Below the pieces are notes generated by a model. It did no database searches. It was not told the DNA's origin and worked only from the letters and a program-made list of their open reading frames with translations. Below, piece by piece: positions 12,371-53,213 of a stretch of 64,000 nucleotides of DNA. Origin of the DNA: an uncultured Chloroflexia bacterium (GTDB taxonomy: Bacteria; Chloroflexota; Anaerolineae; CG2-30-64-16); assembly GCA_963774265.1 (NCBI GenBank), contig CAVZDU010000008.1, forward strand, positions 64,001-128,000, in the 5' to 3' direction. The translations under genes were made by a program, and so were the position numbers. Numbering within the stretch: the stretch's first letter is position 1; every line of letters begins with the position of its first letter.

Positions 12371-12387
12371 GCACCGGAGGTGTCGCT

Positions 12388-24652: not shown

Positions 24653-24653
24653 C

Positions 24654-25254
24654 ATGGACCCATTCAAAACCTTCACAACGCAGGTGGTCCCCCTTCCTGC
24701 AGAAAACGTCGACACCGACCAGATCATTCCTGCACGTTTTCTCAAGACCACAGACAAGGCTGGGCTGGGCGACAGCCTGTTTTGTGACTGGCGCTATGAT
24801 GCCGCGGGCCAGCCAAAGCCCGATTTCATACTGAACCGCCCGGAAATGAAGGGCCGGAGGATGCTGCTGGCCGGAGACAACTTCGGCTGCGGTAGTTCAG
24901 CGCGAGCACGCGCCATGGGCACTGCTGGGTTATGGCTTCAAGGCCGTGATCAGCACGTCATTCGCCGATATCTTCCGGAACAATGCACTCAAGAACGGTC
25001 TGCTGCCAATCGTTGTGGACGGCGACACCCATCGCCGGCTATTCGAGATGCTGGGCGCTGATCCTGACGCACAGGTGACCGTGGACCTGGCGACGCAGAC
25101 CGTCGCGCTGCCCAACAAGTTGTCCGTGACATTCCAGATCGACCCCTTCTCGCGCACCTGCCTGCTGCAAGGCGTCGATGAGTTGGGCTATTTGCTGGGC
25201 CACTCGCCCGCCATCGCTGCTTACGAAGCCGCGCAGGCCGCGCTCGGAAACTGA
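24654..25254 (+). CDS. leuD: 3-isopropylmalate dehydratase small subunit (one indel)
   Basis: [20 protein letters not shown](REHA), [14 protein letters not shown]. Confidence 0.95.
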
Positions 25255-25261
25255 GGTTCTT

Positions 25262-26836: not shown

Positions 26837-26847
26837 CAAGGAGTTAT

Positions 26848-27942
26848 ATGCAGGCTAATATCACGGTTTTGGGCGGAGACGGTATCGGCCCCGATGTAGC
26901 TGCGGAAGGGGTGAAGGTGTTGCGGACCTCCGCGGCGAAGTATGGCCACGAGTTCCACTTCACCGACTGCCTGATGGGGGGTGTCGCCATCGATCAAACG
27001 GGCGCGGCCTTGCCCGATGAGACGCTGGCCCAGTGCAAGGCAAGTGACGCGGTGCTTCTAGGCGCCGTGGGCGGTCCCAAGTGGAGCGACCCTCGCGCGC
27101 CGGTCCGGCCCGAACAGGGGTTGCTAGCGATACGCGCCGGGCTGGGGCTATTCGCCAATGTGCGTCCGGTTAAGGTCTACCCCGCGCTGGTTGACGCATC
27201 GACACTCAAACGCGAAGTGGTTGAAGACGTGGACCTGGTCATATTGCGCGAGCTGACCGGAGGCCTCTACTTCGGCAAGCCGCAGGGCGTATTCGGTGAG
27301 GCGCCCAATCGCTCGGGCGTGGACACGATGTCCTACACTGAGGGTGAGATCAGCCGGCTGATGCGCGTAGCGTTCGACCTGGCGCGCGGCCGTCGCAAGA
27401 AGGTTTCTTCAGCCGATAAGGCTAACGTGCTCGCATCTTCACGTCTCTGGCGCACGGTAGCCCATGAAGTCCATGCTGAGTACCCCGATGTTGAGTTGGA
27501 GGACGTGCTCGTCGATGCCTGCGCGATGTACCTTGTGCGTAAGCCGCGGCAGTACGACGTCATCGCCACTGAAAACACCTTCGGTGATATCCTGTCGGAC
27601 GAGGCTTCTATGCTGGCAGGCAGCATGGGCATGCTGCCATCCGCTTCCCTTGCTGAGTCTACGGAAAGCACTGGTCGCCGGCTTGGCCTTTACGAACCCA
27701 TCCACGGCAGCGCACCGGACATCGCCGGCAAGGGGATTGCGAACCCCCTGGCGACGATCCTGAGTTGCGCCATGCTCCTCCGTTGGTCGCTGGGACTGCT
27801 CGCCGAAGCTGATTCGGTCGAGCGAGCCGTCGATGCGGTCTTGGCTGATGGCTACCGCTGCCGCGATATCATGACCCCCGATGGCAAGTGCTTATCTACG
27901 ACAGACATGGGCCATGCGGTGGCCGAGCGAATAGGACGTTGA
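26848..27942 (+). CDS. leuB: 3-isopropylmalate dehydrogenase
   Basis: [44 protein letters not shown]. Confidence 0.98.
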
Positions 27943-27963
27943 TTTAACTCTACAGAGGTTACT

Positions 27964-29634
27964 ATGCGTTCAGATATGGTTAAGAAAGGGTTCGAACGGG
28001 CGCCGCATCGTGCTCTGCTTCGCGCCACCGGTGTCATCCGCAGCGAGGCGGACTTCGACAAGCCGTTCATAGCTATCGCCAACTCCTATACCGACATCAT
28101 TCCTGGTCACGTTCATCTCAGAGAATTCGGCGAGGTGGTGCGCCAGGCGGTGTGGGACGCGGGTGGCGTGCCCTTCATGTTTCACACCATTGGCGTTGAT
28201 GATGGCATCGCGATGGGGCATATGGGGATGAAGTATTCGTTGGCCAGCCGGGAACTCATCGCAGACGCGGTAGAGACGGTGGTGGCGGCACACTGGTTTG
28301 ACGGCATGATCTGTATCCCGAACTGCGATAAGATTGTGCCGGGGATGCTGATGGCCGCGATGCGTCTCAACATCCCGACTATCTTCGTCAGTGGCGGTCC
28401 GATGAAGGCCGGTGTAACCCCTTCGGGCAAAGTGGTGGACCTGATCTCGGTCTTCGAGGGGGTGGGCGCTTACAAGACCGGCAAGATCGGCGATCAGGAG
28501 CTCAGCGATCTTGAGCAGTTCGCTTGCCCGACGTGCGGCTCTTGCTCCGGGATGTTCACGGCCAACTCGATGAACTGCCTGTGCGAGGCGCTCGGCATGG
28601 CTCTGCCCGGCAACGGCACAATCCTGGCCGTGGATCCCCGCCGCGAAGCGCTTGCCCGCGCAGCCGGCCGGCAGATGATGAACCTGATCGATATTGACCT
28701 CAAGCCACGCGATATCGTGACGGCGGAGGCCATTGACAACGCGTTTGCACTGGACATGGCCATGGGCGGCTCGACCAACACCGTCCTGCACACCCTGGCG
28801 CTGGCGCACGAGGCCGGCTTGAACTACCCGCTGGCACGATTGAACGAGGTGGCCGAACGGGTGCCGAACATCTGCAAGGTGTCGCCATCCTCGCCCTACC
28901 ATCTGGAGGATGTGGACAAAGCGGGCGGCGTCTCGGCCATCTTGTGGGAGCTATCCAAGCGGCCGGGCGTGCTGCACGCGGATGCAATCACGGTGACGGG
29001 CAAGACCTTGCTCGAGAACGTGCGCGGCGCGGAGAGCCTCGACAAGGCATGCGTCCGCCCACTGGAAAACCCCTACAGCGAACGCGGCGGGCTGGCGATT
29101 CTCTTCGGCAACCTCGCGCCCGACGGCGCGGTGATCAAGTCTGCGGGCGTGCTGCCGGAGATGCTGCGGCATCGCGGCCCGGCGGTGGTCTTCGACTCAC
29201 ATGACGAGGCGAACGCGGGCATCCTGAGCGGCAAAGTGAAATCCGGCGACGTGGTCATCATCCGCTATGAGGGACCGATGGGCGGTCCCGGCATGCAGGA
29301 AATGCTGGCGCCCACGTCGAACATCATGGGAATGGGCCTGGGCACATCGGTCGCGCTAATCACCGACGGCCGATTTAGTGGTGGCACACGCGGCGCGTGC
29401 ATCGGTCACGTCTCCCCGGAAGCGGCGACGGGCGGCCCTATCGCGCTCGTACGAGATGGCGACATCATCGATATCAATATCCCGGACCGCTCGTTGTGCG
29501 TCGAAGTCATGGACGAGGAGCTCTCCCGGCGCAAGGCCGAGTGGCAGGCGCCCCAGCGCGAATTAAGCGGTTGGCTTAAGCGCTATGCCGCCATGGTCAC
29601 GTCCGGGAGCGAGGGGGCCGTCCTCAGAATCTGA
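27964..29634 (+). CDS. ilvD: Dihydroxy-acid dehydratase
   Basis: [40 protein letters not shown]. Confidence 0.98.
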
Positions 29635-29652
29635 CACAGCTTAGCCGCAGAG

Positions 29653-29726
29653 GCCACAGAGAGTCCAGAGGTGACAGGGTTAAGTGCGCATCACCTACTC
29701 CCTGTGTCCTCTGTGCGCTCTGTGGC
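29653..29726. repeat. Imperfect long palindrome (CACAGAG-type REP-like) between convergent ilvD and aspC
   Basis: gccacagagagtccagaggtgacaggg ... ccctgtgtcctctgtgcgctctgtggc; 27-nt arms, 5 mismatches. Confidence 0.65.
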
Positions 29727-29734
29727 AAATGCTG

Positions 29735-30925
29735 TTACAACACGGACGCGATCGCCTGGCACACCACCGGTAGGTTCGAGCGCGTCAGCCCTGCCATATT
29801 GATCCGCCCCGAATCCACAATATAGATCGAGTGCTCGTTGCGCAGGCGGTGCACCTGTTCTTTCGTCAGCCCGGTAAAAGAAAACATGCCGTTTTGGTCC
29901 GCAAGGCACGAAAAATCTCGATCCACACCGCGTGAATGCAATCCAGCGACGAACTGCCGGCGCATCTCCTGGATGCGACTCCGCACCGCGTCAAGCTCCA
30001 TCTCCCACTCCGCGCGCAGTTCCGGAGATTTGAGAATTGTGGAAACGATCCTGGCGCCATGCGCGGGAGGGTTCGAGTAGTTCGTGCGGATGACGATTTT
30101 GATCTGACTCAGCGTGGCTTCGGCGACTGCGGGTGTCTGCGCGATGACTGTCAGCGCACCCACCCGCTCGTTGTATAACCCGAAATTTTTCGAATAAGAA
30201 CTGGCGATCATCATTTCCGGCAGCCGCTCAATAAGGAGGCGTACGCCCGTCGCATCGTCATTCAGTCCGCGGCCAAACCCCTGGTATGCAAAGTCGATCA
30301 GCGGGAGCGCGCCCCGCCTCTCCAGAAGGGCGGCAACCTGGATCCATTGGTCAGGCGTCAGGTCAGCCCCGGTTGGATTATGACAACTGCCATGCAACAG
30401 AACCATGTCACCCGCTTGCACTCGCCGGAGGCCATCGATCATCGCGGTGAAGTCCACACAGTTGTTGGGGACATCGAAATATGGATACGTCTCCACCGAC
30501 AGTCCGGCGGCTTTCATGAGGCCGGGGTGGTTGGGCCAGGTCGGCTGGCTGATCCACACCTTTGCATCCGGCTTTGCCTTCTTGATTAAATCTGCAGCCA
30601 CGCGCAACGCGCCGGTGCCGCCAGGGGCATGGGCAGTGATTGCCCGTCCGTCGGCGATGACTGCTCGATCTGACCCGAAGAGCAGTCCCTGCACCGCGCC
30701 CGTGTACTCCGGTGCGCCCGTGATTCCCAGATAGCTCTTCGAAATCTCCGTCTCGAGAATATCTGCCTCGGCGCGCTTGACAGCGCGAAAAACCGGCGTG
30801 TTGCCCGTTTCATCACGGTACACGCCCGCAGCCAGGTTGATCTTGACGGGGCTAGGGTCACGCTTGAACGCCTCCTCAAGACCGAGGATAGGATCAGGGG
30901 GCGCGATTTCGAGATTGTTAAGCAT
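29735..30925 (-). CDS. aspC: Aspartate/aromatic amino acid aminotransferase (AspC/TyrB type)
   Basis: PPDPILGL, GGTGALR, PTWPNH, HNPTG, DFAYQGF, SYSKNFGLYNERVG, GMFS, SGRIN. Confidence 0.92.
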   Translation of the reverse strand: MLNNLEIAPPDPILGLEEAFKRDPSPVKINLAAGVYRDETGNTPVFRAVKRAEADILETEISKSYLGITGAPEYTGAVQGLLFGSDRAVIADGRAITAHAPGGTGALRVAADLIKKAKPDAKVWISQPTWPNHPGLMKAAGLSVETYPYFDVPNNCVDFTAMIDGLRRVQAGDMVLLHGSCHNPTGADLTPDQWIQVAALLERRGALPLIDFAYQGFGRGLNDDATGVRLLIERLPEMMIASSYSKNFGLYNERVGALTVIAQTPAVAEATLSQIKIVIRTNYSNPPAHGARIVSTILKSPELRAEWEMELDAVRSRIQEMRRQFVAGLHSRGVDRDFSCLADQNGMFSFTGLTKEQVHRLRNEHSIYIVDSGRINMAGLTRSNLPVVCQAIASVL

Positions 30926-31033
30926 CAGGAACTCTCCTCAGAGATTTGGTGTCAGGATAGAGCATGAATTGCTGTATCGTTTATAGGTGGCATCATTGCG
31001 AAGAACAATATTATAGCGCAAGAACCACTAATG

Positions 31034-31068
31034 AAAAAAAGCCCTCGAACTCGTGCGTTCGAGGGCTT
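31034..31068 (-). terminator. Intrinsic terminator of the sulfur operon
   Basis: aagccctcgaac..gttcgagggctt hairpin with A7 on the + strand (U-tract on -), just past the DsrE2 stop. Confidence 0.85.
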
Positions 31069-31090
31069 ACCGGGGGACGGCCGAAATCGA

Positions 31091-31591
31091 TCAGATGAAG
31101 AGGAACTGCGCGCCTTCGGTCATGTCCATGAAGTCGCCCGCGGTCACGATATCGATGACGCCGTCGACAAAGTCTTCCTTCTTCAGGCCCATCATGTCCA
31201 CGCTCATCTTGCACGCATAGAGCTTAGCCCCGCCGTCCACCAGCATCTGGAGGTACTCGTTTACCGGCGGTGCGCCGACGGCGGCCATCTTCTTCTTCAT
31301 GAACCATGTGGTGAACCTGGTCATACCGGGTAGAATGCTCACGATGTTCGGGATGCCCAGGTTGCCGGTCGGCAGCCCCATCATCTTCATCTTCAAGCTG
31401 GTGTTGCCCACTGGCGCCAGCTCAAGCCGCCAGTGCCGCGTCTTGGTGATCATATCCATGCCCCAGAAGGTGAAGAAGATGGTCACGTCGATGCCATTGC
31501 CCAACGCGGCCCACCCCATTATCAGCGCGGGGTATGCCATATCGAGATCGCCCTTAGAACAGATGAAGGCGACCTTTCGCTCGTCAGCCAT
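31091..31591 (-). CDS. DsrE/DsrF-like (DsrE2-type) sulfur-transfer protein
   Basis: SKGDLDMAYPALI, IFFTFWG, conserved Cys in YACKMS. Confidence 0.88.
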   Translation of the reverse strand: MADERKVAFICSKGDLDMAYPALIMGWAALGNGIDVTIFFTFWGMDMITKTRHWRLELAPVGNTSLKMKMMGLPTGNLGIPNIVSILPGMTRFTTWFMKKKMAAVGAPPVNEYLQMLVDGGAKLYACKMSVDMMGLKKEDFVDGVIDIVTAGDFMDMTEGAQFLFI

Positions 31592-31615
31592 GAGAATTCT
31601 CCTTATCATGCGGGA

Positions 31616-31645
31616 AACCTAAAGGTTTTGGAAGCCCTTTAGGTT
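31616..31645. repeat. Intergenic palindrome (REP-like)
   Basis: aacctaaagg-N10-cctttaggtt. Confidence 0.6.
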
Positions 31646-31652
31646 GGGTCCA

Positions 31653-31973
31653 TCAAACGCAGCCTTCGGGTTTGCCGAGGCCAGCGATGCGGGCGACCTT
31701 CTTGGCCGGCCCCTTGGGGAACAGGCCGAACAGTTCCTTAGTCTGGACGCCGGTGCCGGTGGTAATCTGGCGCAGCGTAGGAGACTTGCCACCCAGGCCC
31801 TTCGAGGCCTCACGACAGAAGTCGATGACCTTCCAATGATTAGCGGTCAGTTCCGCCAGGCCCTCGTCCTTGGCGATCTCGGCCGCAATGTCCTTGTTCC
31901 ACTCACTCGGGTCGGTCAGGAAGCCTTCATCGTTGACCTGGACGGTCTTGCCGGCAATAGTGCGGGTAGCCAT
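31653..31973 (-). CDS. TusE/DsrC family sulfur-relay protein with a single C-terminal Cys
   Basis: DEGFL..W, LTANHWKVI, LFPKGPAK..RIAGLGKPEGCV. Confidence 0.92.
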   Translation of the reverse strand: MATRTIAGKTVQVNDEGFLTDPSEWNKDIAAEIAKDEGLAELTANHWKVIDFCREASKGLGGKSPTLRQITTGTGVQTKELFGLFPKGPAKKVARIAGLGKPEGCV

Positions 31974-32027
31974 GTTTTTCTTGCTCCTTTGGTCTAACTT
32001 GCCTGTTTTGTCATGTTGATCGTTGTC

Positions 32028-32711
32028 TTACTTGGTTCCATTGCCGCCCTGTGCGCCGACGACGCTCAGGATGCGCATGGTCAAGGCCAAGCCGCGGCGC
32101 ACGTTCGGATCACGCATCTGGCCGAGAAGAGCTGGCAGTGACGTTTTCACGGGCTTCGCCACCTCGACCTCTGTCTGCGCCATGATGGTGCGCACAAACC
32201 CCATGATTTCAGGCTGGGTCATGTCCTTCACCGTGTTCAGAATCAGGACGACGTTATCTCCCAGCTTCTGCACATCTTCTTCGGTGAACGACGCAACAAC
32301 GTTATCAGCGATCTTCAGCCCGCCCGAGGCAAAGGCGAAGTAGCCCCTGTGTTCGGCAACCTGTAACAGGTCAGTGGCCTTCTCGAATGCCTGGTTGGTC
32401 AGCGGCCCGACGGTTTGCGCCAGATCCATCATGCTCTCGAGTTGATCCAGCATTGTCTCGAAATGGCGTCCATTTCGCAGGAGCCGCTTCACGAGGCGCA
32501 GCAGATCGCCGAGATCGACATATTCCTGCACTTCCTCCAACTGTTCCACGGCCAACCGAAAGCCATCATTGACGATGGGAGTCATGTCGTGCATCAGTTC
32601 AGCGCGTTCCTGGCGCTCGCGCTCCGCACGCCGGGCTTGTTCGGTCAGGTACGCCACTTGCTGAGTCAGGGCGTCAAGCTTATCGTTCAGTGCGACCAGT
32701 GCCTGGTCCAT
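32028..32711 (-). CDS. DUF1641-like helical protein
   Basis: Coiled-coil N-terminus and C-terminal SLPALLGQMRDPNVRRGL; RBS GGAGG before ATG 32711. Confidence 0.8.
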   Translation of the reverse strand: MDQALVALNDKLDALTQQVAYLTEQARRAERERQERAELMHDMTPIVNDGFRLAVEQLEEVQEYVDLGDLLRLVKRLLRNGRHFETMLDQLESMMDLAQTVGPLTNQAFEKATDLLQVAEHRGYFAFASGGLKIADNVVASFTEEDVQKLGDNVVLILNTVKDMTQPEIMGFVRTIMAQTEVEVAKPVKTSLPALLGQMRDPNVRRGLALTMRILSVVGAQGGNGTK

Positions 32712-32722
32712 GACGTCCCTCC

Positions 32723-33955
32723 TTACTGCCGCCACTTGCCGTACATGCTCATGCGCGCGGGCAGCGGCAGCTCCTGGCCCTTCAACAGGATGTTCCAGTA
32801 CATCCAGCGGAACATCATCTTGCCCCAATGGTTCATCTCCGATTCCTGCAGTAGCGTGAAAGGACCCACGCCGGGCAGCGGGTAACGGCCGGGCAGCGGC
32901 TCGACATCGTAGTTGAAGTCGATGAGCAGGCCTTTGCCGAAACCGGATTCGATGAAGCAATTGGCGTGGCCGTCAAACGTAGGCAGCATCTCCAACCCGT
33001 CGATGTGACGCAGGAAATTCTCGGAGAAGATATCGACCGCATAGTGCGCCACCGAGCCGGCCTTGGAAGTCGGCACGGCCGCAGCATCGCCCAAGACGAA
33101 GACATTGCTGTACTTCGGCGAGAGGAATGTGTGCTTGTCAACCGGAATGAAGTTGAGCTCGTCGCCCATGCCCGAACGCGCGATCACATCGTCGCCCATG
33201 TTCAGGGGCACGCTGATCAGCAAATCGTACTCGATCTCTTGTTCGTCGTAGGAGACGAGTTTCTTGGCATCGGGTTGAACTTCCATCGCCATGAAATCAG
33301 GCACCACCTTGACGTTCTTTTGATCCAGGATATTGCCCAGATGTTGGGCGGCGATCGGTTTCGTGAAGGCCCCGGAGAGTGGGGTCGCGTAGATCAGCTC
33401 AACGCGGTCCCGGATACCCTGCTCGTGGAAGAACCAGTCCGCAAGCATAATGAATTCAAGCGGCGCGACTGGACACTTGATCGGGTTCTCAACCACGTTG
33501 ACCACCATACGACCCCCCTGCCATGTGCGCAGGTGCTTGGCCAACGCCATTGCGCCTTCGATCGTATAGAAGTCATAGATGGACTTATACCATTCGTGTT
33601 CCTGCAGACCAGGTGTCTGGTCCGGCCGCGTTATGGCCCCGGTGGCGATCACCAGGAAGTCATAGCTCAAATACCGGCCGTCCTTGACCAGCTTCACCCG
33701 GTTGTGCTCAGGCTCGATGAGCTCGACGGGTGACATGATCAGTTCGACGCCGGTCGGGATGAAGTCGCGCTTCGGCTTAACCACGTCGCTCTTGCTGTAC
33801 ATCCCGAAGGGCAAGAACAAAAAGCCGGGTTGGTAGTAGTGCGTTTCATGTTGATCGACGACGGTGATGTGCCACTCGTCGTCAAGAAGACGGCGCAGCC
33901 GGCTGACGACCATGGTGCCGGCGGTGCCGGCACCAAGTACCAATAGCTTCTTCAT
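32723..33955 (-). CDS. sqr: Sulfide:quinone oxidoreductase-like flavoprotein (type III SQR-like)
   Basis: LGAGTAG FAD motif, HYYQPGFLF, KCPVAPLEF, GDAA..TSKAGS, GHANCF (Cys pair). Confidence 0.88.
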   Translation of the reverse strand: MKKLLVLGAGTAGTMVVSRLRRLLDDEWHITVVDQHETHYYQPGFLFLPFGMYSKSDVVKPKRDFIPTGVELIMSPVELIEPEHNRVKLVKDGRYLSYDFLVIATGAITRPDQTPGLQEHEWYKSIYDFYTIEGAMALAKHLRTWQGGRMVVNVVENPIKCPVAPLEFIMLADWFFHEQGIRDRVELIYATPLSGAFTKPIAAQHLGNILDQKNVKVVPDFMAMEVQPDAKKLVSYDEQEIEYDLLISVPLNMGDDVIARSGMGDELNFIPVDKHTFLSPKYSNVFVLGDAAAVPTSKAGSVAHYAVDIFSENFLRHIDGLEMLPTFDGHANCFIESGFGKGLLIDFNYDVEPLPGRYPLPGVGPFTLLQESEMNHWGKMMFRWMYWNILLKGQELPLPARMSMYGKWRQ

Positions 33956-33990
33956 AAAACACAAGCCTCCACTCGCTGAAAGAGGATAGA

Positions 33991-34779
33991 CTAAACGGAC
34001 GTTGTTCCATGGGCCGGCATCTGCAGCCGCGCCTGGATCATTTGCGAAAAAACATCTGCGATGCGCTGCACGAACCGGAGTGCGCGCTCCTGAGCGACGC
34101 GGTCCATGTGAAACACTGCCACGGAGTGAGCGGTCACCGTCTCCGGCTGCACGTGGAACAAGGCAGCCAGTTCGTCTGCTTGGTCCGCGGTCGGCGGCCA
34201 ATTCTCAGATACAATGCCGCCGATGACCACCATGCCCTTCAGTTCAGCGCCCACACGAATCAACCCGCGCGCGCACATCAACCCCATCTCACTCAGAGAG
34301 AATTTCGGCTCAAGTGCAACATCGCCGGCCATCTGCTGCCACGTGTGGACGCAGTGCTGAAGACCATCGGGATTGCCCGCCATCAACGCATCGAAGAAAC
34401 CGCAGGGGTTGCTGATCTTCGTGATGGGCCTGCCCTGCATATCGGTGATGATCAGGGTGGCGCCCAGCAAGTCCGCAAAAGCATCTTGGGCCGCTTGAGC
34501 GCATGCGACCGGCAGCATATCCATGAGGCTGCCATCGTTAATTGGAGCGGCAAATACAGATTCACGAGAAGGAGACAACTCCTGCAATCCACCGGCCAAC
34601 GGTGCGAATGCTGCGGAGCGTCCCGCATGGAGCCAGCGCTCGACATCGGTGCGCGCAAACCGCCACTGTTTGCCGACACGCATCGCGGGCAGTTGCCCAC
34701 CATCTACCATACGGTAGATGGTCGTGCGGTCCACCCGCAGGAGCGCTTGAACTTGCTTAGTCGTCAGGAGATCCGTCAT
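33991..34779 (-). CDS. Transcriptional regulator: excisionase-like HTH plus PocR sensor domain
   Basis: LLTTKQVQALLRVDRTTIYRM..GQLPAMRVGKQWRF; then QDAFA..IITDMQGRPIT..NPCGF..C..GL..I.VG..G (PocR-like). Confidence 0.82.
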   Translation of the reverse strand: MTDLLTTKQVQALLRVDRTTIYRMVDGGQLPAMRVGKQWRFARTDVERWLHAGRSAAFAPLAGGLQELSPSRESVFAAPINDGSLMDMLPVACAQAAQDAFADLLGATLIITDMQGRPITKISNPCGFFDALMAGNPDGLQHCVHTWQQMAGDVALEPKFSLSEMGLMCARGLIRVGAELKGMVVIGGIVSENWPPTADQADELAALFHVQPETVTAHSVAVFHMDRVAQERALRFVQRIADVFSQMIQARLQMPAHGTTSV

Positions 34780-34868
34780 TGCCACTTCAACATCGTTTTT
34801 GTTCGTGAAATCACTAACAGTATGCTTCGTATACCACTCTTTGTCACTGATCCAGATCATATTCAATG

Positions 34869-34914
34869 CATCAAATACATCATAGATGTCCTGGATTCTC
34901 CATCAAATACATCA
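34869..34914. promoter_or_regulatory. 14-bp perfect direct repeat overlapping a putative minus-strand promoter
   Basis: CATCAAATACATCA at 34869-34882 and 34901-34914; minus strand reads TTGATG-16 nt-TATGAT. Confidence 0.65.
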
Positions 34915-35117
34915 AAAGTTACTCGTCTCGTTGTGTCGCAGACAACCCTGGAACCAGGGTCTGCTTCACCCCGTCACAACAGTCAGAAAGAAGAGAATGT
35001 TTTAATTGCCCGCCTCACGTTGCCTGTGTTATACTGATCAGGCGTGATTTTTGCGCAGGTTGCAGGTTGCCTGGTGTGCGCCTGCAGCCCTGATGCTTCC
35101 GCTGACGCGGAGGAGAT

Positions 35118-36326
35118 TTGAGAGAGTTTCAAGCAATGCACAAGCGCACCCTTGCGGTGCTCTTGGGGGCTATACTGCTGCTGGCCGTGGGCTCGATCGG
35201 GTGTTCTGTAACGCAACTTGTCGCTCGCCAGTCGGCTGTAACTGTCACACCGACGCGCACGCCGCGTCCTACATGGACACGAGCAGGCGATGTGTTCCAG
35301 GTCGCCACCCCGACAATTGATGCAACGCGTTTTCCAGGAGCGGCATTGACTGGTGTCGTCGCGTCCACCGCACAAGTCTTTTCACCGGGTCAATCGGGAC
35401 CGATCTTCGTGCCCGTGCCCCAGGGCAGTGGGCTGAGTGTGCAGACGGTGGTCGTGGTCATCGTGACTGCGACGCCACAGCCGCCGCCTACGCCAACACC
35501 CGGCCCACCGACCATGCCTCCGCCACCCACGTTCACACCCGGCCCCCCCACGGCCACGCCAACGAACACCGGCACTCCGTTGCCGCCGGTCACAATTCGC
35601 GTTAAGGTGGACAAGGCGAACGTGCGCCAGGGGCCGAGCCAGTTTTATCCGATCGTGACCAAACTGGATGTGGGCACCAATGTCACGGTTGTCGGCCGAA
35701 ACCGTGGCGGCGACTGGTGGAAAGTTTGCTGCGTCAACGGCCAAGACGTTTGGATTGCGGACTCGGTGGTCGAGATCACCGGGCCCCTGTGGGCTGTCGC
35801 CGAGGTAGCCAACATCCCTCCACCGCCGCCAACGGCGATTCCACCGCCACCGACAGCGACGCGCGCGCCGACACCCACTTTTGCGTGGCCTTTCCGGGTG
35901 GAAGGCGCAGTTCGAGAATATACGAATCCTGGCAACAACTTTTTCCGCGTTGATGGTGTGATCTATAACGGTGCCACGCCGCTCTACGGCTACAAACTGC
36001 GCATCCGCAAGACGTCTACCGGTCAGGAATGGCTAAGCACCGGTTCGCAAACCTCGTGGATGTGGTATGTACTTCAGTTTCCGGCCGATGGAAAAGATCC
36101 GAGTATCCCAGTGGATTGCCCCAGTGCCAACCCACCTAAGGGGCTAATCTGCTTGAAGAGCAACGTTAAATGGGACAGTAACGGCGTACAGGTGCCTTTG
36201 GGCGATGATGTGTGGGAGGTCACTGCAACCGACGGTGGCGGCAAGCCAGTATCCACGCCTGTCCGTATCACAACCAGCGCAGCCAACCCAAAGTGGTACT
36301 ACATCACTTTCACGAGCAGCCCATGA
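35118..36326 (+). CDS. Pro/Thr-rich SH3b-domain lipoprotein 1
   Basis: Lipobox SIGC; PT-rich linkers; ANVRQGPS..V.VVGRN..WWKVCC. Confidence 0.85.
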   Translation: MREFQAMHKRTLAVLLGAILLLAVGSIGCSVTQLVARQSAVTVTPTRTPRPTWTRAGDVFQVATPTIDATRFPGAALTGVVASTAQVFSPGQSGPIFVPVPQGSGLSVQTVVVVIVTATPQPPPTPTPGPPTMPPPPTFTPGPPTATPTNTGTPLPPVTIRVKVDKANVRQGPSQFYPIVTKLDVGTNVTVVGRNRGGDWWKVCCVNGQDVWIADSVVEITGPLWAVAEVANIPPPPPTAIPPPPTATRAPTPTFAWPFRVEGAVREYTNPGNNFFRVDGVIYNGATPLYGYKLRIRKTSTGQEWLSTGSQTSWMWYVLQFPADGKDPSIPVDCPSANPPKGLICLKSNVKWDSNGVQVPLGDDVWEVTATDGGGKPVSTPVRITTSAANPKWYYITFTSSP

Positions 36327-37483
36327 ACCAGATCGCGCCCTCCCACATCCCAACACGACCGGCCAGGGTGCGCGCCATGGCTGTCGTGATTCTCCTGGCG
36401 CTCGTCAGCCTTGCCTGTTCGGTGGGAAGCGCGCTGCAGGGCGGTTCTGGGAGCGGCGCCACGCCCACGAGAACACCGCGGCCGACGTTCACGCCGCTGC
36501 CCGGCGCGCTCACGCCAGCGGTCACGGGATTGCCGGCTGTACGCGGCACGCTACCGCCGGGCGTGAGTGTGCAAACGCCGGACAGTGCTGGGGTGACCGG
36601 CGCATCGTCTATCGGCGCTAACGGCACGCCCGCATCGGTGGCCGGCGATACGAATCTGATATTGTTCGTCACCAACACGCCGACGGCTTCGCCGAGCCCA
36701 ACCCCACGGCCGGCCACTGTGACGCCGATAGAACGCGTCGGGTCGGACGGCCCCGCCCCGCATGCGACAGCTTACGTGGTCATCAAGCCGGCCACGCTGA
36801 ACGGCCGTCGCGGCCCCGGGCCCAACTACGAACGCATCGGCCAGGCGAGCAAAGGCCAGGAGCTGTTTGTCCTGGGACGCACGGCCGATGGCGCCTGGTT
36901 ACAGGTCTGCTGTATGGCGAACCAACCGGTCTGGGTGGCTGCCGACCAGGTGGATGCCACGGGCGCAGTCGAGGCTGCTCCCGTATTCACGCCGCCTCCC
37001 ACACCCCTGCCGCCCACGCCCACCCGGATCCCGCAGCCTGCAATCCCGCGGGTGGGGCAGAGCCCTCTGGCAACGCCGCGACCGGTGGGCACGCCTCTGC
37101 CGCCGTTCGACGTCGCTCGCGGGCCCGAGTTCCCGATCAAACGCGACAACGGCGTGCTCACGATCTGGGTCAAGGTATATGAAGGGTCGGACGAATTCCA
37201 GCGTCCACTGGGGGGTTACATCCTGAAGGTAACGCGCGACGGCGTTGATATCAGCGATAACATTCAGTCGTTCGACGACCGTCCATTTGACAAGACCCCT
37301 GCCAACCAGGGCGCATATGAATATAATCTGAAATTCGAGAAGTACGAAGCCAGCGAGGCCGATTGGGAGATCTACCTGGCCCGACCCGGTGGATTCCGTG
37401 TGTCGCCGGTCACGAAATACACGACCAAGGGCGACTCATATCGCAACCTGGTGGTCTACATTGCTTATCTCCTGGCGCGGTAA
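36323..37483 (+). CDS. Pro/Thr-rich SH3b-domain lipoprotein 2
   Basis: ATGA overlap with the previous gene; lipobox SLAC; LNGRRGPG..VLGRT..WLQVCC. Confidence 0.85.
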   Translation: MNQIAPSHIPTRPARVRAMAVVILLALVSLACSVGSALQGGSGSGATPTRTPRPTFTPLPGALTPAVTGLPAVRGTLPPGVSVQTPDSAGVTGASSIGANGTPASVAGDTNLILFVTNTPTASPSPTPRPATVTPIERVGSDGPAPHATAYVVIKPATLNGRRGPGPNYERIGQASKGQELFVLGRTADGAWLQVCCMANQPVWVAADQVDATGAVEAAPVFTPPPTPLPPTPTRIPQPAIPRVGQSPLATPRPVGTPLPPFDVARGPEFPIKRDNGVLTIWVKVYEGSDEFQRPLGGYILKVTRDGVDISDNIQSFDDRPFDKTPANQGAYEYNLKFEKYEASEADWEIYLARPGGFRVSPVTKYTTKGDSYRNLVVYIAYLLAR

Positions 37484-37559
37484 CCCGGGCGACTGTGCAG
37501 ACGGTCGTCCCCTGCCCGCCACGAACTCCAGAAAACTTGAACCGAGGAGGAAGTGCAAC

Positions 37560-38513
37560 ATGCGCGTGCGCTTTTGGGTGCTCATTGCTGCGGCTGTACT
37601 GGCTATCGGGCTGGCGGGCTGTAGTACGGCCCGTGTCGCCCGCGGGCCGGCCAACACGCCCGTACCCACGAAAACCCTGCGGCCGACTTTTACCGCAACG
37701 GTCCCGGAACCGACCTTGACGCCAAGCCCTACCACCGCCCAGCCGGTCTCCGCTGATCAGGCTCCGGCGGCCAGCGCCACGCCGGAAGGGCCAACCGCAA
37801 CGGCTGAGCCGCCGACACCCGAGCCAAGTCCCACGGCCGAGCCCGCCGCCTTCACCGTAAACAGCGCTTCGCTCAACGTGCGCAGCGGCCCCGGCACCGC
37901 CTTCGGCGTCATCGGCCGCCTGACAAACGGCCAGAGCTTCCCGATAACGGGAAAGAACCGAGACGGCAGTTGGTGGCAGTTCGACTACAACGGCCGGACA
38001 GGGTGGGTGGCTGGCTCGAATGTCTCCGTCCGCAGCGGCGACACGGTGGAGGTTGCGCAAAACATCCCGGTCGCACCGACCGCGGCCCCGCGACCAACTG
38101 CACGACCAGCAGCCCCGCGACCCGCGCAGCCCCAACCACAACCACAACCGCAAGTCGTTACGAAATATAGCCTGACCAAGTCTGAGCTACGTCCTAACAC
38201 AAATCCCATCGTCAGTGTTTGGTGCTTCGTGATAAACCAGGGCGGCAACGGCGTGGTGGGAGGGACGATTCGAGTCCTTCAGGGCGGAGCCACAGTCAAA
38301 GAACAACCATTCAACGCCGTGATGGCTCGCGGCGATCCAGGTTACTCCTCAGAGTATCTCTATAACGATGGGTGCAAAGTGGAGTTGCCTGGGGCGGACG
38401 GGACCTACAGCGCCTACTTGATTGAGGGTGGCAACCAGGTGTCCGACGCCTTCACCTTCACGGCCTCAGGTAGCACAAACCGAATCGCGATTATTGAATG
38501 GAAGCTACGGTAG
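37560..38513 (+). CDS. Pro/Thr-rich SH3b-domain lipoprotein 3
   Basis: RBS GAGGAGG; lipobox LAGC; LNVRSGPGT..ITGKN..WWQF..GWV. Confidence 0.88.
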   Translation: MRVRFWVLIAAAVLAIGLAGCSTARVARGPANTPVPTKTLRPTFTATVPEPTLTPSPTTAQPVSADQAPAASATPEGPTATAEPPTPEPSPTAEPAAFTVNSASLNVRSGPGTAFGVIGRLTNGQSFPITGKNRDGSWWQFDYNGRTGWVAGSNVSVRSGDTVEVAQNIPVAPTAAPRPTARPAAPRPAQPQPQPQPQVVTKYSLTKSELRPNTNPIVSVWCFVINQGGNGVVGGTIRVLQGGATVKEQPFNAVMARGDPGYSSEYLYNDGCKVELPGADGTYSAYLIEGGNQVSDAFTFTASGSTNRIAIIEWKLR

Positions 38514-38545
38514 ACAAGGCAGCCGTTAGCGGTACTCATGTCTCC

Positions 38546-41349
38546 ATGCAATCAGCAAGAACCCGGTTTTGTGGCAAAACAGGGTTCTTGCTGATTGCCA
38601 TGCTGCTGGGCCTCGCCCTCCGCGCAGCCCGGCTTAACTTCCAACCCTTGTGGTGGGACGAAGGCTATTCCGTCTGGTTTGCCACCCACTCACTCGACCA
38701 GATGGCAGCGCTCACAGCGGAGGATATCCATCCTCCGCTGTACTATGCGCTGCTGCACCTGTGGACGCTTCTGGGCGGGACAGGGCCAGTCAGCCTGCGG
38801 CTTCTCTCAGTTGCTTTCGGGGTCGCCGCGATCCCGATGATGTATGTGGCGGGGCATCGGATTCTCGCCAGTCACCGCGCAGCCTTACTGGCCTCCTTCC
38901 TCGTGGCGATCAGCCCCCTGCACGTTTTCTACAGCCAGGAAATTCGCATGTATGGACTGGTCGCCCTGCTCAGCACGGGGGTGCTGTGGGCGGCGTGGGG
39001 GGTGCTGCACCAGCGTCAAAGTCGTTCGGCGCCGTTCGCGTACGTCATCCTGACCACCCTCGCGCTCTACACGCAGTACTACGCCCTTTTCTTGCCCATC
39101 GCTCTGACTCTGTACGCGCTGTGGTGGTGGCGCAAAGACCTCAGGAGCCTTGGACGTTGGCTCGGATTGCAGGCCATCATTGCGGTCTTGTATCTACCGT
39201 GGACGATCTACGCGGGGTCCAGGCTCGTCCTTTACGTTAGCAACAAGATCGTCGCGGACGCTGACAAACCTCTCGGCTTCCTCATGTATCTCGCCCGACA
39301 TCTCTCTGCCTTCACAGCCGGTCACCTCGAAGGGCCGCTTGCAACGTGGTGGCCGCTCGCCCTGGTGCTCCTCATCCCGACAATTGTCGGTCTCATCCTA
39401 CGAAGTCGAGCGCGGACGCGACCCGCCGGCCCATCTCCTTTTTCGTCACGGTACTCGGCGTTGCGCTGTTCCTCGGCTGGCTGATCGGTCTGCGCTACCC
39501 CTTCTTCCCCGACCGCGGTGAACGGCTGTTGCTGCTCGCTCTGCCGGCGTTCGTGATGCTGACTGGCGCCGGTCTCGATGCCTTGCTGGCCCGCGTTCGG
39601 CCCATCGCTTATGGGGCCCTGGCGCTCGTCGGAGCTGTTTCGGCGGTCAGCCTGGCCGGGTTCTACTTCGTGCCCCGCTATGCGGATGATGACTACCGCC
39701 CGCTCATCGCGCGAACCGTCGAGCAGGGACTGCCAGGCGACACCGTCTACTGTGTATATCCGTGGCAGGTCGGCTACTGGCGCAGCTACGCCCAGGTTAA
39801 CGGCCCCGTCGCGGTGTTAGGACCGGCAGGGGAATGGGGACCGGAGGTCCAGGCTGCCCTCCAAAACGAGCTGACACAGGGACGCGTCTGGTTCCCGGCG
39901 CACCTTTCGCTCGGCGCGATCCTGGAAACGCAGGTCGAGCGATTCCTGGGCGAACGCGCCGTGCCTTTTGCCAACACGTGGTACGGGCCCGGAACCCGGC
40001 TCAGTGCGTGGAGTGCACAGAGCATAGGGAACGATCCGGTCAGCCTCAGCATAGGAGCCGCCCCTCTCGCAACTTACACGATGCCGGGCGGCGGCCAACT
40101 TGCCTTGCTGGGTGTCACCGCCGTCACCTCTCAAGTACCCGCCGCAAATCAAATCGTGCCCCTGTCTGTCACCTGGCAGGCCGATCGCGTGCCACCCGAG
40201 CTTGGCGTAAGCGTACGCCTTTCGGATGACCTGGGGCAGATCTGGGGACAGAACGATTATGAGCCGCCCGGGGCGATGGTGGGATCAGACGCAGGCAAAG
40301 CAGAGGGGTCCGCGTGGCGCGCAACCGACCGTTTTGGGCTGCTCATTCCTGCGGGAACACCGCCTGGCCGCTATCGGGTCGAGCTCCTGGCGATGCCTAA
40401 GGGCAGCACGCGGCCCCTGGATGCGGTCGCCCAAGGGCAGCCGGTCGAGGAAGGTGTTCGCCTGTTCGACCTCGAGGTGACGCCCGCTGACCGGACCCTC
40501 GGTCCCGAGCGTCTCCCCATCGCCAGCCGCCAGACCATCGACCTTGGCGACGACCTGCAGTTCCTGGGCTACGCCGTCGACACCGCACCGTTGGCCCCCG
40601 GCTCCCTGCGCCGTGTGAATCTGTTCTGGCAGGCGATCGGGACGCCTGTCGCCGACTACACCGCATTCGTCCAACTTCTCGACAGTGATGGCTCGCCCGC
40701 AGCAGGATGGGAGGCTCCACCCGGGGCGGCGCATGCTACCTCGAGTTGGGCGTCAGGAACGCTGATCCGCACGCAAGCCTTCTTCCGCGCACCTGCCACC
40801 CTGCCGAATGGCCGCTATCGCCTGATCGCCGGGCTTTACCGGCCGTCTGACGGCGTCCGACTCAAGACCTCATCCGGCGCCGAGCAGCTGTCACTCGGCA
40901 AGATGACCATCCAGGGTCGCGACCACAATATGACTCCACCCAAACCCGCCTGGCCGGCAGATGTCTCATTCGACGGCGCCGCGCACCTGGTCGGCTACGA
41001 CCTACCCACGGGGCAGGTTGCAGGCGGCGGAAAGCTGGTGGTAACCCTCCACTGGCAGGCAGTAGCGGCGTCCGACCGGCCTTATACGGTTTTCGTGCAC
41101 CTGGTGGACGAACAGGGGCAGGTTCGAGGTTATGGGGACGGCGAGCCTGGCAACGGGGCCTATCCCACCACGGGCTGGCTGGCCGGTGAATACCTGGCCG
41201 ACGAGCACACGATAACCGTGGCGGCCGATGCGCTGCCAGGAACGTACCGTATCGCAGTCGGCCTGTATGAGCCGGGCCCCGGGCAGAGGCTGCTGACGGG
41301 ATCGGACGAAGATCACACGGTCCTGGATCAGGTAGTGAGCTTGAAGTAA
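38546..41349 (+). CDS. GT-C fold membrane glycosyltransferase (PMT/GT39-like) with C-terminal Ig-like repeats; one indel near 39430
   Basis: LWWDEGYS, DIHPPLYY, YSQEIRMY, many TM helices; three repeats of L.W...DY.VFVHL.D..G..PG.Y.L..GLY. Confidence 0.85.
38548..38598. repeat. Inverted repeat with 24-bp arms inside the 5' end of the glycosyltransferase gene
   Basis: gcaatcagcaagaacccggttttg-tgg-caaaacagggttcttgctgattgc, one mismatch. Confidence 0.85.
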
Positions 41350-51885: not shown

Positions 51886-51896
51886 TGGAGGTCAAG

Positions 51897-53019: not shown

Positions 53020-53213
53020 AGCGAACCGGGCGCTCTGATCTGTGGCAGCAAAAACGCCGGCGGATAATGCTTTCCGGATGAATCGCCTCCCGCGGGCGCG
53101 CAAGGGACCCGCGTCGAGACAGCCTCAACCTGCCCGCGCCTCAAATTCTCCACAGCAGTTCATCATCCTACACAACCGCTTTCCCTGGCTTCTTTCGCCC
53201 TTTGGACCTGCGG

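Follow-up and report, generated by a model that had tools for sequence, protein, structure and literature searches.

In the TusBCD-TusE relay, a DsrE-family transferase acts together with a carrier of the DsrC family whose penultimate cysteine is the working residue, and the SQR-PDO-rhodanese and cst sulfide-detoxification operons are controlled by CstR, SqrR/BigR or FisR. The SQR-PDO-rhodanese pathway is summarised in a part of PMC13047784. A DsrE-family transferase is likewise paired with a DsrC-family carrier with a penultimate cysteine in the relay of Allochromatium vinosum, where sulfur was passed in vitro from DsrEFH to DsrC, not in reverse, and where DsrC carries sulfane chains on Cys111 (excerpts of PMC3397948). 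The closest known system is the SQR-III-TusA-DsrE2 operon of Methylacidiphilum fumariolicum SolV (MFUM_v2_0219-21), which, according to excerpts of PMC10205796, combines a type III SQR with a small single-Cys sulfur carrier and DsrE2, contains no dioxygenase, is induced ~1.7-fold by H2S and was proposed to detoxify sulfide to S0. Type III SQRs have been described as sulfide oxidisers (PMC10989961; excerpts of PMC10205796) and as the least understood SQR class (the latter excerpts).

The locus analysed here, located in a 64-kb stretch of DNA (the window), resembles the SolV operon in its type III SQR, single-arm-Cys carrier and DsrE2-like protein. It is set apart, by description, by a carrier of the DsrC family (PF04358, no TusA domain), an inserted gene for a DUF1641 or helical membrane plugin (HMP) protein, and an Xis/BldC-PocR regulator gene in first position. 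As to the original prediction of a new system, the general plan is known from Methylacidiphilum with TusA as carrier (excerpts of PMC10205796). Unlike the Allochromatium relay (excerpts of PMC3397948), the locus encodes a single DsrE2-type subunit rather than a heterohexamer, a carrier with one arm Cys and an SQR as redox partner; in contrast to both this and the TusBCD-TusE relay, no DsrAB, DsrMK or MnmA is present at the locus. With the SQR-PDO-rhodanese and cst operons it shares an SQR and sulfur carriers under their own regulator, and ArsR, sigma54 and CsoR-fold proteins occupy the same slot in related loci. It differs from them in the type III SQR, the DsrC-family carrier and the lack of a conserved persulfide dioxygenase, rhodanese or TauE; membership in this group was rejected because no persulfide dioxygenase is linked in the window and none recurs in 80 loci.

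Gene content of the locus

Five intact ORFs with the same direction were found on the minus strand (Table 1), separated, from the regulator to the DsrE2-like gene, by 35, 11, 54 and 61 nt. Shine-Dalgarno-like motifs precede the SQR, DUF1641, DsrC-like and DsrE2-like genes; none was seen before the regulator gene. The terminator has a perfect 12-bp stem (31039-31068) with a U tract and a fold z of -2.8, with equally good folding in 2 of 200 shuffles. The ORFs, this stem and the upstream repeat bear out the predicted arrangement of five same-strand genes between a candidate promoter/operator and a terminator. Likewise, no dsrAB, tusBCD, persulfide dioxygenase or rhodanese was found in a Pfam scan of the 70 other window ORFs and 2 flanking ORFs, as had been claimed. 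Three further large ORFs (25178-29634), outside that scan and judged from their translation only, were read as branched-chain amino acid genes. No final sulfur sink is encoded near the operon.

Table 1. Positions of genes and regulatory elements in the window.
Feature	Position	Strand	Length	Basis
Regulator, HTH_17 + PocR	33991-34779	-	262 aa	Pfam
Type III SQR, Cys-containing NF049943 member	32723-33955	-	410 aa	Profile score and both Cys
DUF1641/HMP protein	32028-32711	-	227 aa	Pfam
DsrC-like carrier	31653-31973	-	106 aa	Pfam DsrC
DsrE2-like (DrsE_2) sulfurtransferase	31091-31591	-	166 aa	Pfam
Candidate operator + promoter	34867-34914	-		14-nt repeat x2 overlapping candidate -35/-10
Intrinsic terminator closing the operon	31031-31068	-		Hairpin + U tract

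The SQR reached 632.4 bits against NF049943 (type III SQR, NCBIfam; cutoff 525), and among solved structures it is closest to human SQOR (E 2e-42), with Aquifex SQR 3HYV at 1e-16. It contains exactly two cysteines, C161 (KCPVAP) and C333 (ANCF), which are the active-site residues named beforehand and match the catalytic positions ~159-161 and 331-339 quoted in parts of PMC10989961 and PMC13047784. The selenoprotein form of the family (Sec/UGA in HxxU) was ruled out by the Cys at position 333. Both catalytic cysteines are kept in 80/80 loci, the second having been demanded by the locus search patterns, so that Sec forms were not retrievable.

The C-terminal DUF1641 motif was detected in the HMP protein with 23 bits (Pfam cutoff 21), and the family profile matched ForE1 (E 1.4e-8) and YjlC/Ncp (4e-5). 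The monomer model is all-helical (pTM 0.33) and gave no match with Foldseek. The protein is predicted to be a tubular scaffold for quinone access and is likely the membrane and quinone partner of the SQR. This supports the partnership that had been put forward as possible; the link itself is not new, having been published as a genomic inference (excerpts of PMC13433803), and most HMP genes are reported to adjoin SQR genes (excerpts of PMC13433803 and PMC13524794). According to the same excerpts, an oxidoreductase gene is followed by a DUF1641 gene in ForCE, Huc, Ndh-Ncp (YjlC) and predicted SQR-HMP pairs. In the text searched of these two sources, no solved or assayed SQR-HMP complex was found and DsrC/TusE or DsrE neighbours are not mentioned. 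The window protein differs from the HMPs of ForCE, Huc and Ndh-Ncp in its greater length, with an N-terminal coiled coil, in being optional (35 of 63 core loci) and in its occasional fusion, in relatives, to the DsrC-like carrier.

The only arm Cys of the carrier is the penultimate C105, equivalent to Cys111 of DsrC (excerpts of PMC3397948). Ala94 replaces the second DsrC Cys, and the canonical two-Cys arm (CX10C) is thus absent (Ala94/Cys105). The terminal Cys is kept in 69/69 related proteins, and a second arm Cys occurs in one of them (L057). A further residue, C53, lies outside the C-terminal arm and is kept in only 9/69 relatives; the statement that the protein keeps only its terminal Cys accordingly holds for the arm, not for the whole protein. 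The carrier matches TIGR03342 (TusE/DsrC/DsvC family) and shares 35% identity with E. coli TusE. Its TusE label was not upheld, with 61.8 bits against NF008562 (cutoff 191), no tusBCD in the window and a profile closer to DsrC structures. The DiSCo C-terminal DsrC motif, as read here and with at most one difference allowed, differs at two positions in the window protein, whereas 32/69 relatives have 0-1 differences. The further assertion that DsrC homologues with a single Cys do not work with DsrAB was too strong, given that the DsrC of Desulfurella amilsii is stated to function with one Cys (PMC8477390).

The DsrE2-like protein contains DrsE_2 (PF13686; 122 bits, cutoff 25). Its active-site C127 lies in the expected ACKMS motif and is kept in 65/68 relatives, the remaining 3 being gaps; an additional C11 is kept in 30/68. 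Assignment to the DsrE2A sulfur carrier equivalog NF047629 was rejected (111.8 bits, cutoff 210), and one relative (L008) scored 110.9 bits. The nearest solved relative is 2QS7, a DsrE2B that forms a trimer (PMC11094781).

Conservation of the gene set and a possible SQR-DsrC link

At least 594 candidate loci were found among GTDB species genomes, and the closest 80 were examined; the counts thus lean towards near relatives, and the loci do not represent independent cases. Of the 65 related loci with sufficient flank, 63, from ~15 phyla, contain the SQR, single-Cys DsrC-like and DsrE2-like genes side by side, always in the order SQR-(HMP)-DsrC-DsrE2. All five genes are present in 10 of the 55 loci with both flanks. 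The conserved core thus comprises three genes, those for the type III SQR, the single-Cys DsrC-family protein and the DsrE2-like protein. The co-occurrence in other genomes that had been proposed as a check was found for this core, and the module stands as a conserved sulfur-handling unit but not as a fixed set of five. No recurring tusBCD, mnmA or cysteine desulfurase family was detected among clustered neighbours or scanned adjacent genes, and only 3 ORFs with a metallo-beta-lactamase motif, none recurring, were found as possible persulfide dioxygenases in the 80 loci. In haloarchaea, more distantly related SQR-HMP loci are flanked by TusA or rhodanese genes in place of these. A PhsA-like molybdoenzyme cluster (564 bits, under the cutoff of 694) lies near L004, and L006 has a homologue.

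A direct link between SQR and DsrC is suggested by fusions, the dsr-side exceptions and complex prediction. HMP-DsrC fusions were found in 5/80 genome loci (L047, L051, L054, L069, L071) and in 3 database proteins (P0393-P0395), and suggest, from their sequences, that the carrier is tied to the SQR scaffold. Two candidate SQR-DsrC fusion proteins, P0245 and P0278, both single database entries, keep the terminal Cys, with P0245 lacking the first 18 DsrC profile positions; three other apparent fusions (P0391, P0399, P0400) looked like frameshift chimeras. For SQR, DsrC-like protein and FAD, complex prediction gave weak support, at 0.50 (best control 0.00), with runs agreeing in at least 81% of contacts and a partner pLDDT of at least 83; the mark applied was reached by 116/157 solved complexes and 2/215 mismatches and, at values of 0.60 or below, by only 18 solved complexes plus both mismatches. 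The relay order SQR to DsrE to TusE of the original prediction is doubtful, because by this evidence the neighbour of the SQR is the DsrC-like protein and not DsrE2.

Both loci without the full core, L057 and L079, lie in or beside dsr clusters, with the orders dsrMKOP-dsrA-dsrB-dsrC (two Cys)-small ferredoxin-like ORF-sqr in L057 and sqr-hmp-dsrA in L079 (Desulforhopalus). L078 (Desulfopila), left out of the count for its short flank, also lacks carrier genes directly downstream. The SQRs of L078 and L079 nest inside the family tree of the window SQR, and both loci keep the HMP gene. Their shared Cys set (11, 103, 159, 226, 332) matches, at the level of the published pattern, that of the cable-bacteria type III SQR (11, 103, 159, 226, 339; excerpts of PMC13047784). 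The window differs from this cable-bacteria/Desulfopila subclade in that its SQR is devoid of the three extra cysteines, whereas L078 and L079 have neither a dedicated single-Cys carrier nor DsrE2 at their loci.

Regulator and upstream repeat

The regulator consists of an N-terminal Xis/BldC-type HTH (HTH_17) and a C-terminal, GAF-like PocR sensor (PF10114; 64.8 bits, Pfam cutoff 23.9), and its Atlas neighbours are PocR clusters, one being HTH_17 + PocR. Its profile matched BldC 6AMA (E 1.7e-4). In the model (pLDDT 88.8), the HTH aligned with 6AMK over 51 residues at Z 8.0 and rmsd 1.2, and the sensor with IclR/GAF domains at Z up to 10.5. Membership in the BldC family (NF033787) was rejected at 36.9 bits (cutoff 77), the regulator being a two-domain protein and not a stand-alone HTH. 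Cys93, 126, 143 and 169 of the sensor are each conserved in 115-120 of 120 close homologues; such conservation is a general trait of PocR domains and thus no evidence of sulfur sensing.

A perfect 14-nt direct repeat (34869-34882 and 34901-34914) overlaps a weak (9/12) sigma-70-like promoter with a candidate -35 element at 34906-34901 and a candidate -10 element at 34884-34879, each copy consisting of two units with a 9-bp period of the TGYA-N5-TGYA type. Using a consensus picked after the sequences had been seen, a 9-bp-period motif was detected upstream of 10/14 regulator genes, with 4/14 loci lacking it, versus 1/64 control regions; with 12 occurrences in the window, it is not rare by itself. 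In a motif-free test upstream of the regulator, only period 9 was strongly enriched (p 1e-4; period 6, p 0.03), and the window's own promoter region scored only 11/15 on a three-unit repeat test, with 38/200 shuffles equally high. BldC of Streptomyces, on which the HTH_17 domain superimposes, binds 9-bp direct repeats and is a stand-alone protein of 68 residues (excerpts of PMC5859096), whereas the window regulator has a PocR sensor and lies downstream of 9-bp direct repeats of another sequence.

A regulator gene lies directly upstream in 37/80 loci (13 HTH17-PocR, 11 ArsR, 7 Cys-rich MerR, 4 PAS-Fis/sigma54, 1 CsoR/CstR-fold, 1 MarR-like). The Xis/BldC-PocR type, present in 13/69 loci, is one among several interchangeable regulators and is tied to sulfur by gene position only.

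Proposed function and its meaning

With a probability of about 0.5, the operon specifies an inducible cytoplasmic module for sulfide oxidation and detoxification whose product sulfur is kept protein-bound; the gene set, protein families, conserved cysteines, co-occurrence, HMP-DsrC fusions and repeat enrichment were observed, and from them we infer the activity and its direction, the SQR-DsrC transfer, the HMP complex, the role of DsrE2, operator binding and the inducer. The type III SQR would oxidise H2S at C161/C333, with electrons passing via FAD to menaquinone, reached through the HMP tube in loci that encode one and by direct contact with the membrane in the others. The DsrC-like protein would take up the sulfane sulfur at C105 of its flexible C-terminal arm and so act as the SQR's dedicated thiol acceptor, a role otherwise filled by glutathione or TusA, and the DsrE2 trimer may swap sulfane sulfur with this arm, either collecting, priming or discharging. 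Given that no dioxygenase is linked, sulfur would finally leave as polysulfide or S0. The HTH_17-PocR protein would bind head to tail, in a BldC-like manner, to the 9-bp repeats that overlie the promoter, most likely as a repressor that is relieved once a sulfur or redox signal is sensed by its Cys-rich domain.

The one-way transfer from DsrEFH to DsrC fits a flow towards the SQR as well as away from it. It would suit a looser clean-up, closest to the order first predicted, in which the SQR frees polysulfide like type I/V enzymes and sulfane sulfur is buffered in the cytoplasm by transfer from DsrE2 to the DsrC-like protein, with no direct SQR-DsrC transfer. Methylacidiphilum indeed turns H2S into elemental sulfur with its SQR-III operon (excerpts of PMC10205796), and the haloarchaeal loci suggest that the carrier is replaceable; HMP-DsrC and candidate SQR-DsrC fusions, a gene order constant in 63/63 loci, the position of both exceptions with dsr genes and the weakly supportive complex prediction nevertheless make this arrangement rather unlikely. 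If DsrC is the direct partner of the SQR, the same one-way transfer could also point to a reductive direction, in which polysulfide or small persulfides supply the sulfane sulfur that DsrE2 places on the DsrC-like arm, and this persulfide is then reduced to H2S by the flavoprotein with HMP-delivered menaquinol, as persulfide detoxification or an anoxic electron sink. The PhsA-like genes of L004 and L006, the dsrAB genes of L057 and L079 and the many hosts in lineages that we take to be anaerobic or facultative heterotrophs would agree with it. The reaction would be uphill, with potentials of about -74 mV for menaquinone and -260 mV for S0/HS-. It also runs counter to the description of type III SQRs as sulfide oxidisers (PMC10989961; excerpts of PMC10205796) and is judged unlikely. 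A biosynthetic supply of protein persulfide from sulfide, for tRNA thiolation or cofactor synthesis, is highly improbable: the single arm Cys, as in TusE, and the TIGR03342 match would suit a TusE-like carrier, but the NF008562 score, the 35% identity to E. coli TusE, the closer DsrC structures and the lack of recurring tusBCD, mnmA or cysteine desulfurase among the neighbours surveyed argue against it, and such a supply needs neither a dedicated regulator nor a quinone link.

The protein-bound oxidation module probably serves to remove toxic hydrogen sulfide by loading sulfur onto a DsrC-type carrier, which would be a new way of handling sulfur. The operon is widespread in bacteria and little studied, and many of its hosts are heterotrophs not regarded as sulfur organisms. 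For a large type III SQR branch that spans phyla (at least 594 candidate loci), it points to a probable dedicated sulfur acceptor, and it suggests a likely function for DsrC-like proteins in genomes without linked dsrAB; the single-Cys carriers one position off the DiSCo motif (31/68) could pass for Dsr markers. It is also a tractable target for an SQR-HMP structure and provides a predicted operator along with a BldC-type regulator that carries a sensor domain.

A doubtful but far-reaching extension is that the physiological acceptor of this SQR family may be a DsrC-family protein throughout: its own single-Cys DsrC outside the Dsr world and, in Dsr-bearing bacteria (L057, L079 and, by Cys pattern, cable bacteria), the true DsrC, loaded directly after the dedicated gene was dropped. 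If true, sulfide would enter the Dsr pathway in a single step, with no need of rhodanese, TusA or DsrEFH; this route would be a candidate for how sulfide oxidation and disproportionation begin in Desulfobulbales, with a concrete hypothesis of how the cable-bacteria-type SQR could connect to DsrC.

The operon and its surroundings

The window carries five intact minus-strand genes with intergenic gaps of 35, 11, 54 and 61 nt, which Pfam and NCBIfam models assigned to HTH_17 + PocR, type III SQR, DUF1641 (helical membrane plugin, HMP), the DsrC family and DrsE_2. The SQR scored 632 against NF049943 (type III SQR; cutoff 525), and a selenoprotein form was ruled out because a Cys codon is present. 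All Cys residues named in the original prediction were recovered in the window proteins. The DsrC-family carrier has a second Cys, C53, kept in only 9/69 relatives, and the DsrE2-like protein has C11, kept in 30/68. A DsrE2A identity of the latter was rejected (score below cutoff). The carrier profile matched DsrC structures (1e-25 to 1e-30) as well as the separate 'sulfurtransferase' entry 7SYB (1e-15); since a TusE identity was excluded by failure at the TusE equivalog cutoff, 'single-Cys DsrC-like' is the better name, and a functional single-Cys DsrC has been described (PMC8477390). The predicted absence of dsrAB, tusBCD, dioxygenase and rhodanese genes from the window was borne out by a domain scan of 70 of its other ORFs. 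An Rfam search of 29600-35400 returned zero matches.

The aminotransferase gene next to the operon was rejected as a module member, as it lies beyond the terminator and has its own promoter-like site. Among the best 80 of at least 594 related SQR loci, only L001 and L002, the two closest, have such a gene after the operon. Several housekeeping genes of the window are fragmented, which points to indel errors in the assembly; all five operon genes are intact.

Features of the window and of related loci (L numbers)
Feature	Position	Remark
Terminator, strong	31039-31068	closes operon; fold z -2.8
Perfect 14-nt direct repeat		5' of operon; overlaps weak promoter match
Aminotransferase gene	29735-30925	aspartate/aromatic type
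Promoter match, 10 of 12	31037-31010	for aminotransferase gene; overlaps terminator tail
leuC/leuD, FGGY kinase, CoA transferase, acyl-CoA dehydrogenase	23246-25251, 10816-13921, 50410-53078	in pieces across frames
Three tandem Pro/Thr-rich proteins	35118-38513	plus strand; bacterial SH3 domains
PMT-family glycosyltransferase gene	38498-41349	seemingly split; 3' of SH3-domain trio
IS630-type (DDE_3) transposase	55468-56490	
YeeE-rhodanese fusion	L024:12816-14081	operon neighbour
DUF302 plus rhodanese	L035:9696-10513	operon neighbour
Rhodanese-containing protein	L056:12298-13875	operon neighbour
PhsA/PsrA-like molybdoenzyme cluster	L004:34-8724	with cytochrome genes and second ArsR; adjoins operon, also in L006
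dsr-sqr run	L057:1374-11230	Verrucomicrobiota; one run

Conservation of the core and the probable partner of SQR

GTDB species genomes were scanned with an alignment of 11 SQR sequences. This gave at least 599 candidate stretches; 594 passed confirmation, the best 80 were analysed, and locus counts thus refer to the best 80 of at least 594 and are skewed to close relatives. The closest relatives of the window SQR among the matches listed were from Anaerolineae (83-84% identity), which makes Chloroflexota the probable phylum of the host. Downstream genes were counted in the 65 of the best 80 loci whose 3' flank is 1,700 nt or longer. In 63 of these, DsrC-like and DsrE2 genes lie directly 3' of the SQR gene, so this part of the proposed five-gene module stood; a fixed set of five was ruled out, with all five genes in only 10/55 loci. 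HMP is encoded between SQR and carrier in 35 of the 63 core loci and absent from 28. The 15 loci with short flanks contain whichever partners fit before the contig end, except L078, where the gene after HMP is unrelated and on the opposite strand. Among the best 80 loci the core spans about 15 phylum labels (quick tree, SH-aLRT support only), including Chloroflexota, Actinomycetota, Bacteroidota, Ignavibacteriota, Acidobacteriota, Verrucomicrobiota, Myxococcota and Bacillota.

No further neighbour recurs widely in the best 80 loci; minor ones are FadL-type porins (6 loci), rhodaneses (5) and DUF302 (5), and metallo-beta-lactamase-motif ORFs number only 3 in all 80. The FadL/OmpP1-type outer-membrane porin genes adjoin the operon in six diderm genomes (L018, L019, L031, L036, L048, L065) and may serve the uptake of hydrophobic sulfur. 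Plasmid searches matched only distant haloarchaeal SQR-HMP loci and enterobacterial TusE, and the regulator was not found in them.

Four kinds of evidence suggest that SQR has the DsrC-like protein as its partner: gene order together with Cys conservation, fusions, the dsr-linked exceptions and complex prediction. The order SQR-(HMP)-DsrC-DsrE2 is constant in the 63 core loci of the best 80. The catalytic residues C161/C333 of SQR are kept in all 80 of the best loci, the second being demanded by the search pattern, and C105 of the carrier in 69/69 related proteins. HMP-carrier fusions were found in five genome loci of the best 80 and in three database proteins, and two SQR representatives, putative fusions known from single database entries, have a C-terminal DsrC domain including the terminal Cys. 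Database proteins P0391, P0399 and P0400 (DsrC-DsrE2, DsrC-DsrE2-aminotransferase and regulator-DsrC) were discarded as probable frameshift chimeras, and a long ORF in L042 because it uses a different frame. P0252, an SQR of the same family, has a C-terminal extension of ~150 residues that by eye resembles a CBS pair.

Both full-length exceptions to the core among the 65 loci, L057 and L079, sit with dsr genes. The order is dsrM-K-O-P, dsrA, dsrB, two-Cys dsrC, a small 4Fe-4S ferredoxin-like ORF and sqr in L057, whose DsrA scores 338, below the cutoff of 393, and sqr, hmp, dsrA in L079. Direct loading of DsrC by SQR in Dsr organisms appears rather unlikely to us. Complex prediction for SQR and the DsrC-like protein gave 0.50 vs 0.00 for the best control (contacts agree to 81% or more; partner pLDDT 83 or higher); as the mark was passed by 116/157 solved complexes and 2/215 mismatches, with 18 solved complexes and both passing mismatches at scores up to 0.60, the model weakly backs an SQR-DsrC contact.

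The HMP family profile matched ForE1 (1.4e-8) and YjlC/Ncp (4e-5). Most HMP genes are reported to adjoin SQR genes, SQR has been proposed as the ancestral HMP partner (PMC13433803), and the HMP tube and its quinone transport are described in PMC13524794, so the SQR-HMP pairing is already known as a genomic inference; the accessible part of the supplement of PMC13433803 gave no matches when searched. The positions with the clearest difference between 43 HMP-bearing and 31 HMP-less SQRs are for the most part among the last 70 residues, and the tail is more basic without HMP (net +2.5 vs +1.0); as related rows were compared with kinship ignored, a tie to HMP presence is a lead only. Foldseek with the HMP monomer model gave no matches, and single-sequence PDB searches with HMP and with the regulator yielded nothing informative.

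The regulator and its candidate operator

The regulator model combines a BldC-like HTH (Z 8.0, rmsd 1.2, 51 residues) with a GAF-like sensor; Foldseek returned generic IclR/GAF matches only. Its Cys93/126/143/169 are kept in 115/120/120/119 of 120 close homologues and in 7/10/11/11 of 13 more distant locus copies, and conserved Cys are, to our knowledge, a general feature of PocR domains. An HTH17-PocR gene lies upstream in 13 of the 69 loci with enough flank (best 80 of at least 594), 12 of them in one Chloroflexota-Actinomycetota clade. Elsewhere in the best 80 the slot is taken by ArsR (11), Cys-rich MerR (7), PAS-Fis/sigma54 (4), CsoR/CstR-fold (1) and MarR-like (1) genes, most ArsR and MerR assignments resting on clustering to Pfam-scanned members. 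The MerR-type leaders directly upstream of SQR (L013, L016, L018, L021, L023, L026, L039; Ignavibacteriota, KSB1, Calditrichota) have a C-terminal domain with about seven conserved Cys that is covered by no family model. The ArsR proteins encoded directly upstream of SQR in L003, L004, L006, L014, L015, L020, L022, L025 and L040 have one conserved Cys in the first helix; that of L004 lies far under the BigR cutoff (44.5 vs 155). In a rough reverse check, 10/61 regulator matches on contigs 3.2 kb or longer shared the exact contig size with a carrier match, as against 0-1 in seven offset controls.

Motif-free autocorrelation was run on the 200 nt preceding each of 14 regulator genes and on 64 control regions. 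Period 9 stood out (p 1e-4), and it has a prior because BldC binds head-to-tail to 9-bp direct repeats (PMC5859096). TGYA-N5-TGYA, a consensus picked after inspection, occurs in 10/14 regulator upstream regions, several of them from close relatives, vs 1/64 controls (other spacers 1/14), and is absent from the other four. In a three-unit RTGCA test neither the window nor L001, L002, L031, L035 or L077 reached significance, and L059 was borderline. The 9-bp repeats are the predicted operator of the regulator.

Proposed sulfur route and related systems

The closest solved relative of the window SQR is human SQOR, which needs a thiol or sulfite acceptor; by analogy, a dedicated protein acceptor would fit this kinship. 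With a probability of about 0.52, we favour a reading in which SQR would oxidise sulfide and pass electrons through the HMP tube to menaquinone, sulfane sulfur would be placed on C105 and exchanged between carrier and DsrE2, and sulfur would leave as polysulfide or S0. A simple forward relay to DsrE2 is disfavoured, because no sulfur transfer from Allochromatium DsrC to DsrEFH was seen (PMC3397948). Loose buffering of free polysulfide appears unlikely next to such exchange. Persulfide reduction by quinol, uphill on potentials, is slightly less probable again, and we give little credence to biosynthetic supply.

The closest system in the literature is the Methylacidiphilum operon of type III SQR, TusA and DsrE2, which H2S induces about 1.7-fold (PMC10205796) and in which the carrier is TusA rather than a DsrC-family protein; a haloarchaeal plasmid carries tusA-sqr-hmp, and the window operon would work alike but with a DsrC-family carrier. 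NF049943 originated as a predicted selenoprotein family (PMC13188914, PMC12013277), and the accessible part of PMC12013277 gives no gene neighbourhood for it. A type III SQR with Cys159/Cys331, expressed in E. coli, is reported to remove sulfide (PMC10989961). The structure 2QS7 has been assigned to DsrE2B and the function of Allochromatium DsrE2A called unclear (PMC11094781), and the role of Sqr in disproportionation is listed as open (PMC10504309). A cable-bacteria/Desulfopila SQR subclade is defined by Cys11, 103 and 226, with the fate of the product left unresolved in that paper (PMC13047784). The SQRs of L078 and L079, which nest inside the window SQR family (tree with SH-aLRT support only), share these residues (both Cys11, 103, 159, 226, 332), from which we infer that cable-bacteria SQRs belong to the same family. 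Neither an SQR-III + single-Cys DsrC + DsrE2 operon nor an HTH_17-PocR sulfur regulator was described in the literature searched, which spans few subscription journals, and there is no mention of dsrC or dsrE in the accessible part of a paper on the Ignavibacterium genome (PMC3362086).

The operon is a real, conserved variant of SQR-plus-sulfur-carrier operons, whose parts belong to known families. Its new elements are a near-obligate DsrC-family partner of SQR with its fusions, a BldC-type regulator that bears a sensor and has a predicted operator, and a testable link of the SQR operon to the Dsr pathway.
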